From Patescibacteria group bacterium (GTDB lineage Bacteria > Patescibacteriota > Patescibacteriia > UBA9934): DNA of 64,000 nt. The stretch is from the NCBI GenBank assembly GCA_049296775.1, contig JBAQTB010000003.1:12766-76765 (forward strand), given 5' to 3'. Positions 5,575 to 61,524 of the stretch are shown here, piece by piece (the stretch's first letter is position 1; every line of letters begins with the position of its first letter). Under the pieces are notes generated by a model. The model was given only the letters and a program-made list of their open reading frames with translations, had not been told where the DNA came from and searched no databases. The position numbers and the translations under genes were made by a program.

Positions 5575-6396
5575 TTAAGCAGTTATGCGCCGAATAGGGG
5601 TGTGGACGGTTTTGCGGTCGAAATAGTTAGGTTCCGGTGGACTACAAAAGAATACTATCGCCCAACGTGAGGCGGTATCGTTATAGATACTGTTCCCTCG
5701 TTGAAGTACGTCGTGCCATGTTGGCATTAGTTCATTATCAGTGTGTAGTCCTAGTGAAATGCCCGGAAAGAACAGGCCTTGACCTTTTGTATGTGTAACT
5801 TCTGTGAGGTGTTGATCGTCTGGGCCTAGACGTAGTCCTGGCGCGCTTTCTGCAATGGCGATGGTGCAGCTACCACGATCGTAATGTCCTTTAGCTAGGA
5901 AATCACCAGCACGAGTTCGATCATATTTAAGTAAACGAATCACGTATGCATCATTACCGTCAGCGGGGAAGAATTTAGTGTATAAACCGGGGTAGTCGAC
6001 TTCTAATGAATGTATTATTTCTCGCATTGCGCTCAAGGTTTTATTTAGAATTGGATCCAGACTTCGTGTAAGGGCTTGAGCGGCAGGGATTTGGGCTATC
6101 AGTGGAGCAAATAGGATTTTTGCTTGATTGTTATAGTGAAAGAACTCTTTATTGTCATATCCAAAGCCAGCATCAACACTACGACGTCGCCAGCCAAGAT
6201 CTACACCGCGATCACGTTCATCTTGTTTTATATCGATTACAAACTTAGCCTTATCTGTCTCTGGGAGAGCTAAAAAAGTAAAGAAATTTTTTACCGCTAG
6301 AGCGATTTGTTCAGAATGAATTTCAAGCGGAAACTCGAAATAAGATTGTTTTTGAATAGTGGCTTTTAAGTTGGTTATATTGTATTTAGACGCCAT
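5575..6396 (-). CDS. Fe(II)/2-oxoglutarate-dependent oxygenase (isopenicillin-N-synthase-like fold)
   Basis: 2OG-FeII_Oxy-type motifs: [20 protein letters not shown] (HxD), PGLRLG, TWHDVLQ...[10 protein letters not shown] (distal His plus RxS). The start overlaps the glyA stop by 11 nt. Confidence 0.6.
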
Positions 6397-7639
6397 AGTT
6401 TAATTCCGGATATAGCGGAAAGGCTTGCATGAAGACGGCGACTTCGGCTTTGATGGATGCGAGTTTGGTGGGATCTTTTTTGTGAGTGATAGCTTCGTCG
6501 ATCCAGGCGGCGACTTTGATGATGTCGGCTTCTTTTAAGCCGCGAGTTGTGATTGCTGGAGTACCTAAACGGATGCCGGATGGGTCCATAGGCGGGCGAG
6601 GATCGTCCGGGATCATATTTTTATTACAGGTAATTCCAGCTGCGTCTAGGGCCTGTTGAGCTTCGCCGCCAGTTGCGTTTTTACTGGTGACGTCGATGAG
6701 CATTAGATGGTTTTCGGTGCCACCGAACATTAGTTTGTAGCCTTTAGCGGTAAGCTCGCTCGCCAGTACCTGAGCATTGGCCTTAATTTGTTTGGCGTAC
6801 GCTTTGAATTCAGGTTTAAGCGCTTCTCCAAAAGCTACCGCCTTAGCGGCAATGGTATGCATGTGGGGGCCGCCTTGCAACATCGGAAACACGGCTTTAT
6901 CGATCTGCTTGGCTAGGGCAGCCTTACACATAATCATGCCGCCACGTGGTCCGCGTAGAGTTTTGTGCGTGGTGGTAGTCACAACATCGAACAAGGGCAC
7001 GGGGTTATTCATTTCACCTCCAGCAATCAAACCGGCGATATGAGCAATGTCAGCCATGGAGTAGGCGCCAACGCTGTCCGCGATTTGTTTGACACGAGCG
7101 TAGTCGATTTCTCTGGAGTAAGCCGAATAACCCACGAGAATCAATTTTGGTTTGTGTTCTTTGGCGGTAGCCTCGAGTGCGTCGTAGTCAATGCGGCCAT
7201 CCGCGGTGGTCTTGTAACGCAAGAAATTGTAGCGCTTGGCTGAATCGGTGACGGGGTGGCCGTGGGTTAAATGACCACCGTGGGATAAGTCCATCCCGAG
7301 CACAGTATCGCCAGGGGCAAGTAATGCTGCATAAACAGCAATGTTCGCCGGTGCTCCGGAGTGGGGCTGCACGTTGACGTGCTCAGCACCAAACAATAAT
7401 TTTGCCCGTTCAATGGCTAAAGTTTCCAATTTATCGACCTCTTCACAGCCACCATAGTAGCGTTTGCCGGGGTAGCCTTCTGCGTATTTATTGGTGGCAA
7501 CTGAGCCAAGTGCTTCTAAGACCGCTTGGGAAACAAAGTTTTCTGAAGGAATTAACTCTAGACCACCACGTTCGCGAGCTAGTTCTAGGTCTAAGGCCTC
7601 GGCGATTTCTGGATCCTGATCTTTAAGCGTTTTAAACAT
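6386..7639 (-). CDS. glyA: Serine hydroxymethyltransferase
   Basis: Near full-length SHMT similarity ([21 protein letters not shown], the PLP-lysine region [14 protein letters not shown]). Confidence 0.95.
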
Positions 7640-7739
7640 AAACTAAGCAAACAAGAATAAGCGCCGGTCAAGAAGTTTAGGATTAAGTCATATTTAGCTT
7701 TGGACAAAGTGTAATCGAAAAAAAGACGCCCGTCACCTT

Positions 7740-8234
7740 TTACAGGTTACGGGCGATGACGGCCACTTGCTCTTGAAGGCGTGGCACGAAGTTTTTGACG
7801 GTCATGCCGTCCCTCAGGGCGGCCACGATCAGCGTCCGGCTGAGCTCGTTTTGTTGAGCTTTGGCAGCTGCCTCGGTGCTGAAGCCACATAGGACACTGA
7901 ACCAGCCGGTAGCGGCGATTCTAAACTTCTCGCCCTCAGTTACCACTTGGTTTTTGTCGATCAAGCGGTGTTTGGAGCCATTCGTATACACGATTTCCTT
8001 AACTATGTAATACGTCGAGGTTTCCGGCAGAGGATCGGCGCTAGCTGCTGGATCTTCTTTGATATATGCATGGACGTGAACCGCTAGTTCGTGTCCACTG
8101 GCTTGATTAGGTCGGTGCCCGATGATAACCACCGTATTTTCTGCGGGGTGTCGATACGCGTTACCGTGCATGACTTGCACCGTGTAGATCTTTCCCTTGT
8201 TGTGCGTCGGCACGCAACACATCACGATATACAT
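7740..8234 (-). CDS. Hypothetical His-rich protein, first gene of the glyA operon
   Basis: 164-aa ORF with VVIIGHRPNQASGHELAVHVHAYI. No family recognised. Confidence 0.4.
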   Translation of the reverse strand: MYIVMCCVPTHNKGKIYTVQVMHGNAYRHPAENTVVIIGHRPNQASGHELAVHVHAYIKEDPAASADPLPETSTYYIVKEIVYTNGSKHRLIDKNQVVTEGEKFRIAATGWFSVLCGFSTEAAAKAQQNELSRTLIVAALRDGMTVKNFVPRLQEQVAVIARNL

Positions 8235-8280
8235 TGGAGTCTCCTGAGGTGAAAGCTTCTATGCTTTACCAGATTATGCT

Positions 8281-8315
8281 AATTAACACAAAACCCCACC
8301 GTGAGGTGAGGGTTT
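8281..8315 (-). terminator. Intrinsic terminator / attenuator hairpin (minus strand)
   Basis: The minus-strand RNA reads CCCUCACC-UCAC-GGUGGGG followed by UUUUGUGUUAAUU. It lies about 50 nt upstream of the 7740..8234 start. Confidence 0.5.
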
Positions 8316-8525
8316 GTGTGAAGCAGCAAAGAAGTCTTTGCTGCGAGAGCTCCGGCCGTGTGGCCAGAGCTAGCAGGCTCGCTCGTCGTGGATGTCGTGC
8401 TCGGTCCTTCGACCGGAATGGTCGACGGGGCCGAGCAAGTGCTCGGGAACACGGTCGAACGGCCCGGGGTGGCCCGGGCGCGACGACGTTGACTGGGTCG
8501 GTTCCTGTTTTTCTGACTCTTTTGA
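8316..8525 (-). ncRNA. GC-rich structured island: candidate cis-regulatory leader (riboswitch-like) or small ncRNA ending at the 8281..8315 terminator
   Basis: About 68% GC over roughly 200 nt in a roughly 50% GC genome. Multiple perfect stems, for example gcagcaaaga/tctttgctgc and gcccggg/cccgggc. Sits in the divergent 390-nt gap between 7740..8234 (-) and murB (+). Confidence 0.3.
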
Positions 8526-8624
8526 TTGGGGCGTCACGTTGCCTCCTATGGCGTGTGAGTTGCGGCTAGAGTATAGCAGAAAAATTGAATTTGTCAAGGT
8601 TTTCATGTATACTTTGAGGTATCT

Positions 8625-9599
8625 ATGTCTACTTTTTTAGAGGCTTTAACCGAGCGTTTTGCGGCTCAATTCAAGGTCGACGAGCCATTGGCTAAGCATG
8701 TTAACTTTAGGATTGGCGGACCGGCTAAGTATTTTGTAGAAGCAAGGTCGACTGAAGATTTAGTGGCGGTGGTAAAAATCGCTAGAGAGTTTGAAGTTCC
8801 ATATTTTATTTTAGGCGGTGGCTCTAATACGCTGGTGTCTGACGAGGGTTTTTCCGGTTTGGTGATCAAGGCGGCTAATCGACAAGTAATTTTTAACGGA
8901 GAAAGAGTGACGGCCGAGGCTGGGGTGATTGCTGCAACTTTGGCGCGGAGCAGTGCAGATAAAGGTTTGCGTGGTTTTGAGTGGGCCATTTCTTTGCCCG
9001 GCACAATTGGGGGTGCAGTACGTGGAAACGCTGGGTGTTTTGGCGGTGAGGTGAAAGATAATTTGGAGTCTGTGAAGTTATTGCGCCAGGGTGAGGTGGT
9101 TGAGGTCAGCGCTGCTGAGATGCGTTACGGTTACAGACACAGCATTCTGAAAGAGCCTGGTCATGAAACTGATGTGATTTTAGAGGCGACGTTCAAGTTG
9201 GCACCTGGGGACAGGGTCGAGGCCATGGCGGCCTTGGACAAGAATTTAGCTGGTCGCAAGGCTTCACAGCCGCTCGGGTCTGCTAGTGCGGGGTGTATGT
9301 TCAAGAACGTGGAGTTCGCGGATGCAGAAGAGATTAGTAAGTTAAAGTCTAAGGTCGAAATTCCAGAGAACATGTTGGCTATGCGGCGTTTAGGGGCCGG
9401 TTGGTTGATTGATCAACTTGGTTTGAAGGGCATGAAGATGGGGGAGGCGCAGATTGCACCGCAGCATGGCAATTTCTTGTTAAACGTTGGACATGCGAGT
9501 GCTAAAGATATTGCGGCTTTGATTAGTTTGGTAAAAACGCGCGCTCGGAACGAATTTGGAGTACAGTTACATGAGGAGGTCCAGTATCTGGGCTTCTAG
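8625..9599 (+). CDS. murB: UDP-N-acetylenolpyruvoylglucosamine reductase
   Basis: FAD-binding MurB N-domain (HVNFRIGGPAKYF, ILGGGSNTL) and MurB C-domain. Confidence 0.9.
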   Translation: MSTFLEALTERFAAQFKVDEPLAKHVNFRIGGPAKYFVEARSTEDLVAVVKIAREFEVPYFILGGGSNTLVSDEGFSGLVIKAANRQVIFNGERVTAEAGVIAATLARSSADKGLRGFEWAISLPGTIGGAVRGNAGCFGGEVKDNLESVKLLRQGEVVEVSAAEMRYGYRHSILKEPGHETDVILEATFKLAPGDRVEAMAALDKNLAGRKASQPLGSASAGCMFKNVEFADAEEISKLKSKVEIPENMLAMRRLGAGWLIDQLGLKGMKMGEAQIAPQHGNFLLNVGHASAKDIAALISLVKTRARNEFGVQLHEEVQYLGF

Positions 9600-23687: not shown

Positions 23688-23708
23688 CGTTGTTTGCACT
23701 CTGCTTGT

Positions 23709-25724
23709 ATGGCGAACCGTTATCCTCACGATCACGAGCAAGATGTTGTCTATTTTGCTAAGACTAACTTCCGCAATCAATTGCGCAAGTTTGGCATTAA
23801 GACAGATGACCGACGCCGTCATGTGTACGTGGTGGGTAAGACCGGTATGGGTAAGACCACTTTGCTTGAGAACATGATCTTGTCAGATATTTACGCCGGG
23901 CACGGTTGTTGCTATGTAGATCCGCACGGGGATACGGTACAGAAAATTATCGATTACATTCCGTCATGGCGCATTAATGACGTGGTGTATTTCGATCCTG
24001 CTGACGTGGCGCATCCAATCGGATTTAACATTTTGGAGTCTGTGGATCCGACCATGAAACACTTGGTGGCGTCGGCTCTCATGTCCGTGTTTAAGAAGAT
24101 TTGGGAGAATGTATGGTCAGCGCGCATGGAGTACATTCTCAACAACACGATTTTGGCGCTTCTGGATACCCCGGGCACCACGCTCTTGGGTGTGAATCGC
24201 ATGTTGTCAGATAAGGAATATCGTTTAGAGATCGTCAAGAATATTCAAGATCCGATTGTTAAGCAGTTTTGGGTGACAGAGTTTGCGGCGTATGACGCTA
24301 AGTTTGCCTCTGAAGCCGTGGCTCCGATCCAGAACAAGATCGGTCAGTTTTTGTCTTCCTCGATTATTCGCAATATTGTGGCTCAGGCTAAGTCGTCCAT
24401 CAATATTCGTGAGATGATGGATGATCAGAAGATTTTTATCATCAACTTATCTAAAGGTAAGATTGGGGAAGATGCCATGCGCTTGCTCGGCGGCATGTTG
24501 ATCACCAAGATGCAGGTAGCTGCCATGGAGCGCGTGAATGTTCCGGAAGAGACTCGTGAAGATTTTTATTTGTACGTTGATGAATTCCAGAACTTTGCGG
24601 TGGAATCATTCGCTGGCATTTTGTCTGAGGCGCGTAAGTACCGGCTGAATTTGATCATGGCGCACCAGTACATTACTCAATTATCTGAAGAGGTGAGAGA
24701 CGCGGTGTTTGGTAACGTGGGTACCATGATTACGTTTAGAGTTGGCTCGCCGGATGCGGTTTTCATGGAGAATGAGTTCATGCCCAGGTTTACGCCAGAG
24801 GATATTATCAATTTGCCTAAGGCGGGTATTTATTTGAAGTTGATGATTGATGGCGTAGCGAGTCAGCCGTTTTCTGCGGTGACTTTGCCGCCAATTGCGC
24901 AACGCACTGAGAGTATGACGCGCGTAGTTGAGCAGTCGCGTGAACGTTACGGTGGTAACCGCAGCATCATTGAAGAACGTGTGGCAGTTTGGAGCGGTTT
25001 TGGCGCTGATGCCGATGTCGAGAAGATGATTGCGGGTGTAACTCAGGCTAAGAAAGATGCCAAGAAGGCTAGATTTAGTCACGATTATACGTGTACGCGT
25101 TGCGGCAAGGTTTTCTCATTGCCAGTTGAATTAGACCGGAGCCGGCCGATTTATTGTGAAGATTGTAAGCCGATTATTGACGCTGAACGACAAAAGTCCA
25201 AAGACAAAGCTGGTCAACGGACTAAAATCTCAGATGGGCAAGTGATCACTAAACCGATCATTGGATCAGTGTCGCTCGATACTTTAGTGCCGCCTAAGCG
25301 TCTGGAGCCAGCGGTGGTTGCGCCAGAGAAGCACGAGCATATCTTAACGCCGACGGTGCCTGTGCCGCCAGCTGTTGCGGTTAAACCAGTCGCGGTTGCG
25401 GCGGTCGCAGAAACGCCTCGAGCCGCTCCGGCTCCCGTGACGCCTTCGGTAAGTAGCCGACCGTCCATGCCAGCACCACGTGCGGTAACAGTCGCGCCAG
25501 CTCGGCCTGTGAGCACGCAGACAGGAACAGCTGACCCGGATAAGAAGCGCAAGCGGAATCGCAAACGCAAGCCTAGAGTTATAGCAGATGTAGCTGTCAC
25601 GCCACCATTAGCGCCGTTGTCTGTGCCTAGGCTAGTGCCACCAACGGCGATTAAAACCACGGCGGCCATTGAGCCAGCGCTGAAGCCTGTCATGCCCGGC
25701 GAAAGAATTAGCTTTGATGATTAG
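23709..25724 (+). CDS. TraD/TraG/VirD4-family (type IV coupling protein-like) P-loop ATPase, soluble, with C-terminal zinc ribbon and Pro/Ala-rich basic tail
   Basis: Walker A VVGKTGMGKTTL, Walker B YLYVDEFQNFA, T4CP-like core (LIMAHQYITQL). CTRCGKVF-x16-YCEDCKP zinc ribbon. A 190-aa P/A/V-rich tail carries KKRKRNRKRKPR. No N-terminal TM helices. The ORF-track start 23694 is TTG; the ATG is at 23709. Confidence 0.7.
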   Translation: MANRYPHDHEQDVVYFAKTNFRNQLRKFGIKTDDRRRHVYVVGKTGMGKTTLLENMILSDIYAGHGCCYVDPHGDTVQKIIDYIPSWRINDVVYFDPADVAHPIGFNILESVDPTMKHLVASALMSVFKKIWENVWSARMEYILNNTILALLDTPGTTLLGVNRMLSDKEYRLEIVKNIQDPIVKQFWVTEFAAYDAKFASEAVAPIQNKIGQFLSSSIIRNIVAQAKSSINIREMMDDQKIFIINLSKGKIGEDAMRLLGGMLITKMQVAAMERVNVPEETREDFYLYVDEFQNFAVESFAGILSEARKYRLNLIMAHQYITQLSEEVRDAVFGNVGTMITFRVGSPDAVFMENEFMPRFTPEDIINLPKAGIYLKLMIDGVASQPFSAVTLPPIAQRTESMTRVVEQSRERYGGNRSIIEERVAVWSGFGADADVEKMIAGVTQAKKDAKKARFSHDYTCTRCGKVFSLPVELDRSRPIYCEDCKPIIDAERQKSKDKAGQRTKISDGQVITKPIIGSVSLDTLVPPKRLEPAVVAPEKHEHILTPTVPVPPAVAVKPVAVAAVAETPRAAPAPVTPSVSSRPSMPAPRAVTVAPARPVSTQTGTADPDKKRKRNRKRKPRVIADVAVTPPLAPLSVPRLVPPTAIKTTAAIEPALKPVMPGERISFDD

Positions 25725-61108: not shown

Positions 61109-61123
61109 TATTCCGGGGTAGCT
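61109..61123 (+). repeat. 15-nt duplicate of the tRNA-Asn 5' end (tattccggggtagct)
   Basis: Identical to 61214..61228, which includes the first 12 nt of the tRNA. Confidence 0.5.
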
Positions 61124-61216
61124 TCCCGCATCAGACGTCGGTAATCATTACCTCCGTCGACGCGGGACAGGCAGTGGCCGTGAGCCACTTCGCCACCCGG
61201 ACAGAGACACAATTAT

Positions 61217-61291
61217 TCCGGGGTAGCTCAGTGGCAGAGCGCGGGACTGTTAATCCCTAGGTCGTGGGTTCGAGCCCCACCCCCGGAGCCA
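61217..61291 (+). tRNA. tRNA-Asn (anticodon GTT), CCA encoded
   Basis: Acceptor UCCGGGG/CCCCGGA, D arm GCUC-AGUGGCA-GAGC, anticodon loop CUGUUAA (U33, GUU, A37), T arm GUGGG-UUCGAGC-CCCAC, discriminator G, CCA. Confidence 0.85.
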
Positions 61292-61293
61292 AC

Positions 61294-61326
61294 AAAAAAT
61301 CAGCCTTAGGGCTGGTTTTTTGTTTT
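61294..61326 (+). terminator. Intrinsic terminator after tRNA-Asn
   Basis: aaaaaatcagcc-ttag-ggctggtttttt: hairpin plus U-tract. Confidence 0.65.
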
Positions 61327-61457
61327 ACCGACGGGGGAGCAGACAAAAAGTTTTGTCTGCGTTGGGGCGAGAACGCCGGAGGCATATTCCGTCAGCAGAC
61401 GGAATGCCGAGGCGGTGGCCAGCCCGAACCGAGTGACGACGAGGTGAGAGGCGAGGC

Positions 61458-61478
61458 CGAGCCCCACCCCCGGAGCCA
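61458..61478 (+). repeat. 21-nt duplicate of the tRNA-Asn 3' end (cgagccccacccccggagcca), att-site-like
   Basis: Identical to 61271..61291 (T-loop through CCA), 167 nt downstream of the intact tRNA. Confidence 0.6.
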
Positions 61479-61524
61479 TAAAGTAGAAACCAATTTGGTT
61501 TCTATTTTTTGTATCCAATTGGTT

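Follow-up and report, generated by a model that had tools for sequence, protein, structure and literature searches.

What is encoded in the GC-rich, hairpin-dense stretch that lies between murB and a minus-strand gene upstream of glyA in this Patescibacteria genome: a regulatory RNA acting on glyA, or a gene in its own right? The first-pass annotation of the window (the whole 64,000-nt stretch of DNA analysed here) had read positions 8281-8530 as a structured island with the layout of a transcription-attenuating riboswitch or leader, placed before a hypothetical-glyA-oxygenase operon. Our analysis suggests that the island is probably a monocistronic minus-strand gene for a fast-evolving small protein of 55 residues, with a structured 3' tail, and not a glyA riboswitch.

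A GC-rich and structured island beside murB

The GC peak is real, but the figure given for it at first (about 68% over roughly 200 nt) was slightly high. Positions 8281-8530 have 60.4% GC, and the best 200-nt stretch (from 8294) has 66%. The best 150-nt stretch (from 8339) reaches 70.7% and is the top GC peak of the 64 kb, about 4 sd over the mean; the window overall has 48.7% GC (150-nt windows: mean 0.487, sd 0.053). All the stems that had been named in the island were found in the sequence, and GCAGCAAAGA/TCTTTGCTGC form a perfect 10-nt inverted repeat (I6) inside it.

The description of the island as structured holds as well, since folding exceeds chance on both strands. Positions 8281-8563 (283 nt) were compared with 200 dinucleotide-preserving shuffles and gave -120.7 kcal/mol on the minus strand (z -6.5) and -148 kcal/mol on the plus strand (z -6.7). 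A plus-strand product was considered, as its fold is equally stable, and rejected: the promoter, the Shine-Dalgarno (SD) site, the terminator tail and the wobble pair of the terminator hairpin all belong to the minus strand. A plus-strand ORF was likewise rejected, its GC periodicity being non-coding (0.57/0.64/0.50 at codon positions 1/2/3). No other copy of the island or of the ORF sequence was found in the window or in the related loci.

A promoter, a ribosome-binding site and a short ORF on the minus strand

The elements identified in the island and at its murB side are as follows.

8585-8613, plus strand: promoter-like site of murB, TTGAAT, 17 nt, TATACT; the -10 box ends 11 nt before the ATG at 8625
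8570-8597, minus strand: sigma-70-type promoter with an extended -10, TTGACA (8597-8592), 16-nt spacer, TG (8578-8577), TATACT (8575-8570)
8538-8563, minus strand: predicted 5' UTR of 26 nt with AGGAGG (8547-8542), 4 nt before the start codon
8370-8537, minus strand: small ORF of 55 codons, GTG start at 8537 and TAG stop at 8372-8370, the GC-rich core of the island
8348-8371, minus strand: hairpin A, AGCUCUGGCC (loop ACAC) GGCCGGAGCU, 10 bp, overlapping the last two bases of the stop codon
8323-8344, minus strand: hairpin B, GCAGCAAAG (loop ACUU) CUUUGCUGC, 9 bp
8285-8319, minus strand: terminator hairpin T, ACACAAACCCUCACC (loop UCAC) GGUGGGGUUUUGUGU, with a U-rich tail

The minus-strand promoter, the SD site, the start codon and the ORF had been overlooked in the first description of the island. 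In a consensus scan the minus-strand promoter (8597-8570) had 11 of 12 consensus matches plus the TG, and transcription is predicted to start near 8563. The promoter-like site of murB (9 of 12 matches) stands back-to-back with this stronger promoter, and the -10 boxes of the two divergent promoters make up an inverted repeat (I4).

Translation of the 55-codon ORF gives MTPQSKESEKQEPTQSTSSRPGHPGPFDRVPEHLLGPVDHSGRRTEHDIHDERAC, a hydrophilic product without a hydrophobic segment. The spacing from the SD site to the start codon (4 nt) is short. GC at codon positions 1/2/3 is 0.69/0.51/0.75, which at 55 codons is weak evidence by itself; the GC3 of the genes in the window is 0.51 +/- 0.065, with a maximum of 0.65. 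By our own estimate, about a third of sequences this GC-rich would hold an open frame of 55 codons by chance. Neither the public annotation nor the Logan assembly of this strain calls the ORF as a gene.

Related loci share the gene order and the expression signals

Relatives were recovered using MurB, the terminator pattern and the small protein, which gave five related Patescibacteria loci (L001, L002, L015, L016 and L017) with the common order murB, island, gene 2 and glyA. Four of them (L001, L002, L015 and L016) are one clade, with MurB sequences 98-99% identical to one another and 78% identical to that of the window; the MurB of L017 is 86% identical to those of this clade and 78% to the window's. 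A further locus, L018, comes from a Logan assembly of the window strain, is 100% identical over 5,975 nt and is the only other copy of the window version. In Uhrbacteria and similar distant lineages the island is missing and murB is preceded by a long ORF in the same direction, which makes the feature lineage-specific.

Across the three lineages only the promoter, the SD site with the start codon, and T can be aligned, and the supposed aptamer region is unalignable. The promoter matches the consensus at 12 of 12 positions in L016 and 11 of 12 in L017, and is aligned in L001 and L002. The SD site and start codon read AGGAGG-4-GTG in the window, AGGAGG-4-TTG in L001 and L002, GGAGG-4-GTG in L016 and GAGG-5-GTG in L017; L015 has TAG in place of the TTG start of the near-identical L001. 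The ORF that follows encodes 55 aa in the window, 57-64 aa in the clade of four and 141 aa in L017. On the murB side, the relatives have a TACACT box 10 nt before the murB ATG.

Downstream of T, two further features of the window bear on the reading of the locus.

7740-8234, minus strand: gene 2, encoding an orphan protein of 164 aa, with its own SD site (GGAG) and an ATG at 8234
7729-7746, minus strand: second intrinsic terminator, at the end of gene 2 and upstream of glyA

The gene 2 protein had a single database match, its own entry in a Patescibacteria group MAG. Its identity to the positional counterparts in the relatives is only 17-23%; among L002, L016 and L017, gene 2 is recognisably homologous. 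The second terminator, whose stem is conserved with positions 5819-5846 of L016, parts gene 2 from glyA, so the single operon containing glyA that had been proposed is doubtful. In the relatives a TTGACA -35 box lies directly 3' of T, and L017 has TGcTACACT 9 nt ahead of its glyA ATG, which suggests that the downstream genes are served by promoters of their own. Between T and gene 2 the window shows no convincing promoter, and its equivalent of the -35 box is degenerate (TTAGCA); window gene 2 may thus depend to some extent on read-through.

The exceptional structure lies in the tail behind the stop codon

Hairpins A, B and T fold as independent and very stable stems. The T stem has 14-15 bp, in which the A-tract pairs with the U-tract and a single U.G wobble occurs; on the plus strand this wobble would be a C.A mismatch, and this holds in all six copies of T compared. 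In the island, the consensus scan for terminators scored the minus strand alone, at 8311-8294 (CCTCACC-TCAC-GGTGGGG, then TTTTGTGTT), which bears out the earlier observation that a canonical terminator is read from that strand alone. With its G+C-rich stem-loop and U-run, T is predicted to be an intrinsic (Rho-independent) terminator. About 50 nt separate the end of its tail from the downstream ATG at 8234, again in agreement with the first description.

When the folding was scored by part, the statistically exceptional structure was located in the 3' tail. From the stop codon to T, the z-score was about -10 in the window, L001 and L002, about -9 to -10 in L016 and -5 in L017, compared with -3.1 (window), -2.4 (L001) and about -0.3 (L002, L016 and L017) for the CDS. 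The window CDS, with this modest excess, contains three perfect small hairpins. The GC-richness of the island is mainly due to G/C at the silent codon positions of the ORF, and not to the fold of an aptamer.

Six copies of the tail were aligned with a covariance model; such an alignment is fitted to the structure, so the resulting counts lean towards it. In hairpins A and B together, 13 pairs were changed on both sides, compared with 6.3 +/- 1.7 in shuffles (13 pairs were reached in 0 of 500) and 3-6 in slid controls. Hairpin A occupies the same position in the relatives with a different sequence, and both partners are altered in 6 of the 9 pairs modelled for it; in hairpin B, this is so for 7 of 10 modelled pairs across the six copies.

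The evolution of T is of another kind, 13 of its 15 pairs being without any variation in the six copies. T is identical in all relatives. When about 10 kb of four sequences were aligned, T gave the sole run of at least 14 nt (27 nt) common to all four and also the top-scoring 36-nt window (0.94), the interiors of glyA and murB reaching at most 0.81. L017 has two copies of T, the second with a second hairpin B after gene 2 and 30 nt before glyA. In the 64-kb window T occurs once, with no further copy at up to 3 mismatches, and the covariance model for the A-B-T module found no second occurrence there. A metagenome scan for T returned one contig, with both copies at the murB/glyA locus, and a viral scan returned none. 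Two other identities for T were rejected: a comparison by eye with integron attC core sites gave no match, and a dispersed palindromic repeat of the REP or MITE kind would have had further copies, none of which were found in the 64 kb or elsewhere beyond this locus.

Coding-type evolution at this position in the clade of L001, L002 and L016

Coding-type evolution was seen within L001, L002 and L016; the window version has only the identical copy in L018, and its peptide is unalignable with the others. All length differences among the ORFs of the clade (57-64 aa) are multiples of 3. The C-terminus of the clade, RPPRELLEPPSDGRLGREELDRD, is invariant, and the four nucleotide changes within it, in a conserved core of 23 codons in L001, L002 and L016, all fall at third codon positions. 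The ORF frame has 5 silent codon changes vs 1-3 in each of the other five frames. One of the silent changes in L016, GAG to GAA, disrupts a predicted helix inside the CDS. In every lineage the frame linked to the SD site shows GC3 > GC1 > GC2; the values at positions 1/2/3 are 0.78/0.52/0.98 in L002, 0.71-0.78/0.44-0.52/0.93-0.98 among the relatives and 0.70/0.40/0.84 in L017. Two public sources annotate the ORF of the relatives as a gene for a hypothetical protein.

The family is small and isolated. An hmmsearch of the small-protein family against 1.84 billion representative proteins found only itself; searches of Pfam, NCBIfam, PHROGs, PADLOC and PDB sequences returned none for the small proteins, the 141-aa protein of L017 or gene 2, and tblastn against phages and plasmids gave nothing meaningful. 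AlphaFold modelled the small protein of the relatives with low confidence (pLDDT 66.7, pTM 0.21), mostly as coil. The literature search returned nothing relevant on this feature.

For the window peptide, a word-indexed search found no homologue, and a profile search led to the proteins of the relatives only. BLASTP found no similarity between the 55-aa product and the small protein of the relatives, and their alignment has only a loose common motif, R-x-P-x-x-L-L-x-P...G-R. The support for the window ORF is positional, namely the shared promoter, the SD spacing, a stop codon placed where hairpin A begins and the raised GC3, and on these grounds the ORF is likely translated.

The differences between lineages also raise the question of whether the ORF is the decaying remnant of a longer ancestral gene (for example of the 141-aa type of L017) that is still transcribed and no longer functional. 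ORF length and content are wholly different between lineages, and the adjoining gene 2 is also extremely diverged in the window lineage. A weak tblastn match between the L017 protein and the C-terminal part of the window ORF, in the ORF frame (29% over 31 aa), points the same way; its E-value of 0.08 was obtained in a tiny database, and a profile comparison of the two was insignificant. Decay would, however, erode the features that have all been kept here, the promoter, the SD site, the start spacing, the stop at hairpin A and the raised GC3, and we regard a remnant as improbable.

The preferred reading of a small-protein gene joins the motifs, their conservation, the coding-type evolution of the relatives and the covariation of A and B into one course of events. 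The extended -10 promoter (8597-8570) would drive an RNA of about 280 nt from near 8563, and ribosomes would be recruited by AGGAGG in the 26-nt leader, 4 nt before the GTG at 8537, to make the 55-residue protein up to the TAG at 8370. The RNA would end in the three independent stem-loops A, B and T. Hairpins A and B may keep exonucleases off the 3' end and serve as a backup for termination, and T may halt the strongly driven transcript before gene 2 and so insulate that gene.

A glyA riboswitch or attenuator is not supported

A cis-acting riboswitch or leader-peptide attenuator, in which T would gate read-through into gene 2 and glyA, would fit several features of the locus. In every lineage T precedes the next start codon by 30-60 nt, the second copy in L017 stands just before glyA, and in the window no convincing promoter separates T from gene 2. 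Hairpin A shares bases with the stop codon of the small ORF and would be melted by translation, and the invariance of the T sequence could mean that a trans-acting factor binds there. A terminator between a promoter and a downstream coding region is indeed present, and is common to all models considered here.

The defining parts of such a regulator were not found. Rfam cmscan had been proposed in the first-pass annotation for the minus strand of 8281-8530. At gathering scores, a cmscan of the whole window against Rfam 15 returned 3 tRNAs only; at E<=10, positions 8150-8700 gave only a chance miRNA match on the terminator hairpin (E 2.2), and at E<=0.1 nothing was found in L002, L016 and L017. 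A class of the ZTP type had been suggested from the presence of glyA and folD, and no covariance-model match to it appeared at any threshold tried. That annotation had also tied its reading to conservation in relatives with the same gene order, where the 'aptamer' sequence is not kept. Its folding excess is absent in most relatives as well (z about -0.3 in L002, L016 and L017).

An antiterminator competing with T was not predicted in any lineage. When the nascent RNA was folded up to the T loop, the predicted upstream pairing of the T 5' arm amounted to 0.0 kcal/mol in L001 and L016, -1.3 kcal/mol in the window and -5.0 kcal/mol in L017, with no conserved partner; A, B and T behave as independent stable stems. 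Such RNA folding bears on alternative pairings, and a mechanism mediated by a protein would escape it. An alternative pairing of the 5' arm of hairpin B (GGUGAG) with that of T is possible in the L-clade; it is absent from the window and from L017a, was not predicted in the nascent folds and was rejected. With no Rfam match, no conserved aptamer and no predicted antiterminator, the proposed attenuator layout is not supported. Separate promoters appear to serve the downstream genes, gene 2 is unconserved, and in the window it is separated from glyA by a terminator. We consider this explanation highly improbable.

A comparison with known regulators leads to the same view. The ZTP riboswitches (pfl motif, RF01750) that act by termination resemble the locus in having a GC-rich structured RNA followed by a terminator, with glyA or folD nearby, and these two are typical ZTP-regulated genes. 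The island differs from them in having no covariance-model match, conserved aptamer or antiterminator, and the SD site, start codon and ORF fill the place of the aptamer. Attenuators of the trpL, hisL and pheL type likewise have a short ORF before a terminator that precedes genes, with a stop codon abutting a hairpin. Their leader peptides are about 14-30 codons long, which the ORFs here (55-141 codons) far exceed; moreover, the island has no runs of regulatory codons and no mutually exclusive 2:3 and 3:4 pairings, and what follows is not a conserved biosynthetic operon.

Silent sites and the terminator sequence suggest further constraint

The alternative offered by the first-pass annotation, an sRNA of about 230 nt ending at the terminator, was partly upheld: a discrete short transcript is predicted, with a conserved promoter about 280 nt upstream of the terminator, but it carries a conserved SD site and start codon and an ORF that codes for protein in relatives, and a small mRNA is its likelier identity. 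We also weighed a non-coding or dual-function sRNA of about 280 nt, in which the ORF would either have no role in the window lineage or be translated as well. The strong conserved promoter and terminator delimit a discrete unit, the sequence of T does not vary, folding of the window CDS somewhat exceeds that of shuffles, and the window peptide is without a detectable homologue, all of which would suit an sRNA.

The codon composition also bears on this alternative. The window ORF has a GC3 of 0.75, that of L017 0.84 and those of the clade of L001, L002, L015 and L016 0.93-0.98, all well above the 0.51 of the window genes, and in the conserved stretches of the ORF silent sites have 2-4 times fewer changes than the third positions of murB. 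These values imply selection for G/C at the silent sites of the ORF and suggest that the nucleotide sequence or the RNA is itself under constraint. Between lineages, however, the body of the RNA varies in sequence and length (ORF of 168 to 426 nt), and it has lost its folding excess in L002, L016 and L017. The conservation at its upstream end comprises exactly the ribosome-binding site and the start codon, the substitutions in the relatives follow protein-type patterns, and no Rfam family was matched. A non-coding or dual-function sRNA appears unlikely.

A plain mRNA nevertheless accounts for neither the extreme GC3 nor the unvarying sequence of T. The overlap of T with the region upstream of the next promoter may contribute to its invariance, and the stem of the second terminator at this locus is conserved too, between the window and L016; neither is a full account. 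The silent sites held at G/C and the invariant 34-nt T, duplicated before glyA in L017, could reflect a function at the RNA level, either as a dual-function RNA or with T bound in a sequence-specific way by a protein or RNase, which would thereby control read-through or processing at the border with gene 2 and glyA. Such a role is at present a decidedly speculative addition to the small-protein gene.

The middle of the ORF evolves in the opposite manner to T. Over about 20 codons, 13 differ between L001 and L002 and all the differences are non-synonymous, in genomes with 98.8% identical MurB. A variable region of a diversity-generating retroelement (DGR) was considered for this segment and rejected, as there is no template repeat near the hypervariable middle and no second copy of the island or ORF in the window and the related loci. 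The locus is fast-evolving and may be one of host interaction in an episymbiotic Patescibacteria lineage.

Comparison with known small genes and structured 3' ends

A transcription unit made of a small ORF and a structured 3' end is of a known kind, and this orphan member of it is new. As in monocistronic bacterial small-protein genes (fewer than about 70 codons), the island has its own sigma-70-type promoter, an SD site, a start codon, a short ORF and an intrinsic terminator, and its lineage-restricted product was missed by automatic annotation in the window genome. It departs from such genes in its silent-site GC, which is far above that of the genome (GC3 0.75-0.98 vs 0.51), in a middle that is hypervariable between genomes with 98-99% identical MurB, and in an ORF that is swapped for unrelated-looking sequence between lineages. 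Many characterised small membrane proteins and type I toxins have a hydrophobic segment, unlike the window protein.

Stem-loops that stabilise 3' ends include the 'positive retroregulator' of the Bacillus thuringiensis cry gene and the REP stem-loops in E. coli operons. The likeness lies in stable stem-loops after the stop codon and before or within the terminator, with A and B kept by compensatory changes. Unlike REP elements, the module is not dispersed (it occurs once in the window and, in the relatives, at this locus only), and its stabilising role is a proposal. SgrS/SgrT, RNAIII/hld and SR1/SR1P are dual-function sRNAs, and the island resembles them as a short, strongly promoted, terminator-bounded unit with a small ORF and signs of nucleotide-level constraint; it differs in having no visible conserved single-stranded seed, its conserved part, T, being a closed hairpin.

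The result removes a false riboswitch candidate, as a GC-rich, hairpin-dense island beside glyA can be an unannotated small gene with a structured 3' tail. It also adds an unannotated small ORF to this Patescibacteria genome, from a tiny orphan family without a homologue among the 1.84 billion representative proteins searched. Should the odd features stem from genuine selection, this locus would offer a compact setting in which to study how selection acts on silent codon positions and on the sequence of a terminator in reduced genomes.

Spacing of putative promoters at murB and glyA

The -10 box of murB lies only 10-11 nt upstream of the ATG, both in the window (8585-8625) and in the related loci L001 (~420-446), L002 (~2660-2688) and L017 (~6530-6556), and it reads TATACT in the window vs TACACT in the relatives. 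With a spacing this short, the sequence predicts that the murB mRNA would be nearly leaderless, despite the GAGG between the -10 box and the ATG. The glyA gene of L017 is arranged likewise: TGcTACACT stands 9 nt upstream of its ATG. A 19-nt direct repeat also spans the murB start (window 8597-8635), with AGGTTTTCATGTATACTTT at 8597-8615 and AGGTATCTATGTCTACTTT at 8617-8635 (79% identity).

Variation among related loci

The small ORF (gene 1) encoded in the GC-rich island has a TTG start codon in L001 (minus strand), but the corresponding position in L015 (3960-3962) is TAG, the two loci being otherwise 99.8% identical. The JGI gene call instead begins with a GTG that lies 12 nt further downstream.

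In L017, the module formed by hairpin B and terminator T, the stem-loops in the 3' tail of the small-ORF transcript, is found in two copies, one 3' of gene 1 and one 3' of gene 2:

L017 5321-5404, minus strand, hairpin B + T module
L017 5944-6032, minus strand, hairpin B + T module

The 34-nt T is identical in both, and the second copy ends 30 nt before glyA.

Gene 2 (window 7740-8234, 164 aa), which lies between the island and glyA, is an orphan that shares only 17-23% identity with its positional counterparts in the relatives. Despite this protein divergence, the stem of its terminator (window 7729-7746), CGCCCGTnACC...GGTGACGGGCG, is kept in L016 (5819-5846). The gene following glyA is not the same across lineages: in the window (5575-6396) it encodes a 273-aa protein with a weak, sub-threshold match to 2OG-Fe(II) oxygenases (E 0.002), whereas in L016 (7176-7970) it encodes a clear SAM-dependent methyltransferase.

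Other GC-rich segments of the window

The second-highest GC peak in the window (25273-25580, GC 0.68) is ordinary, as it corresponds to the low-complexity Pro/Ala-rich C-terminal tail of a 676-aa ORF (23694-25724).

Copies of both ends of a tRNA gene were found close to it:

Window 61217-61288, tRNA (neighbourhood 61110-61478)

The tRNA 3' end plus 3 bases beyond it, gagccccacccccggagcca (61272-61291), recurs at 61459-61478, and the 14-nt attccggggtagct (61215-61228), which extends into the tRNA 5' end, has a second copy at 61110-61123. These duplicated ends resemble scars left by an integration event or a partial duplication at the tRNA gene. Between the copies of the 3' end is a GC-rich segment (61319-61489) with GC up to 0.667.
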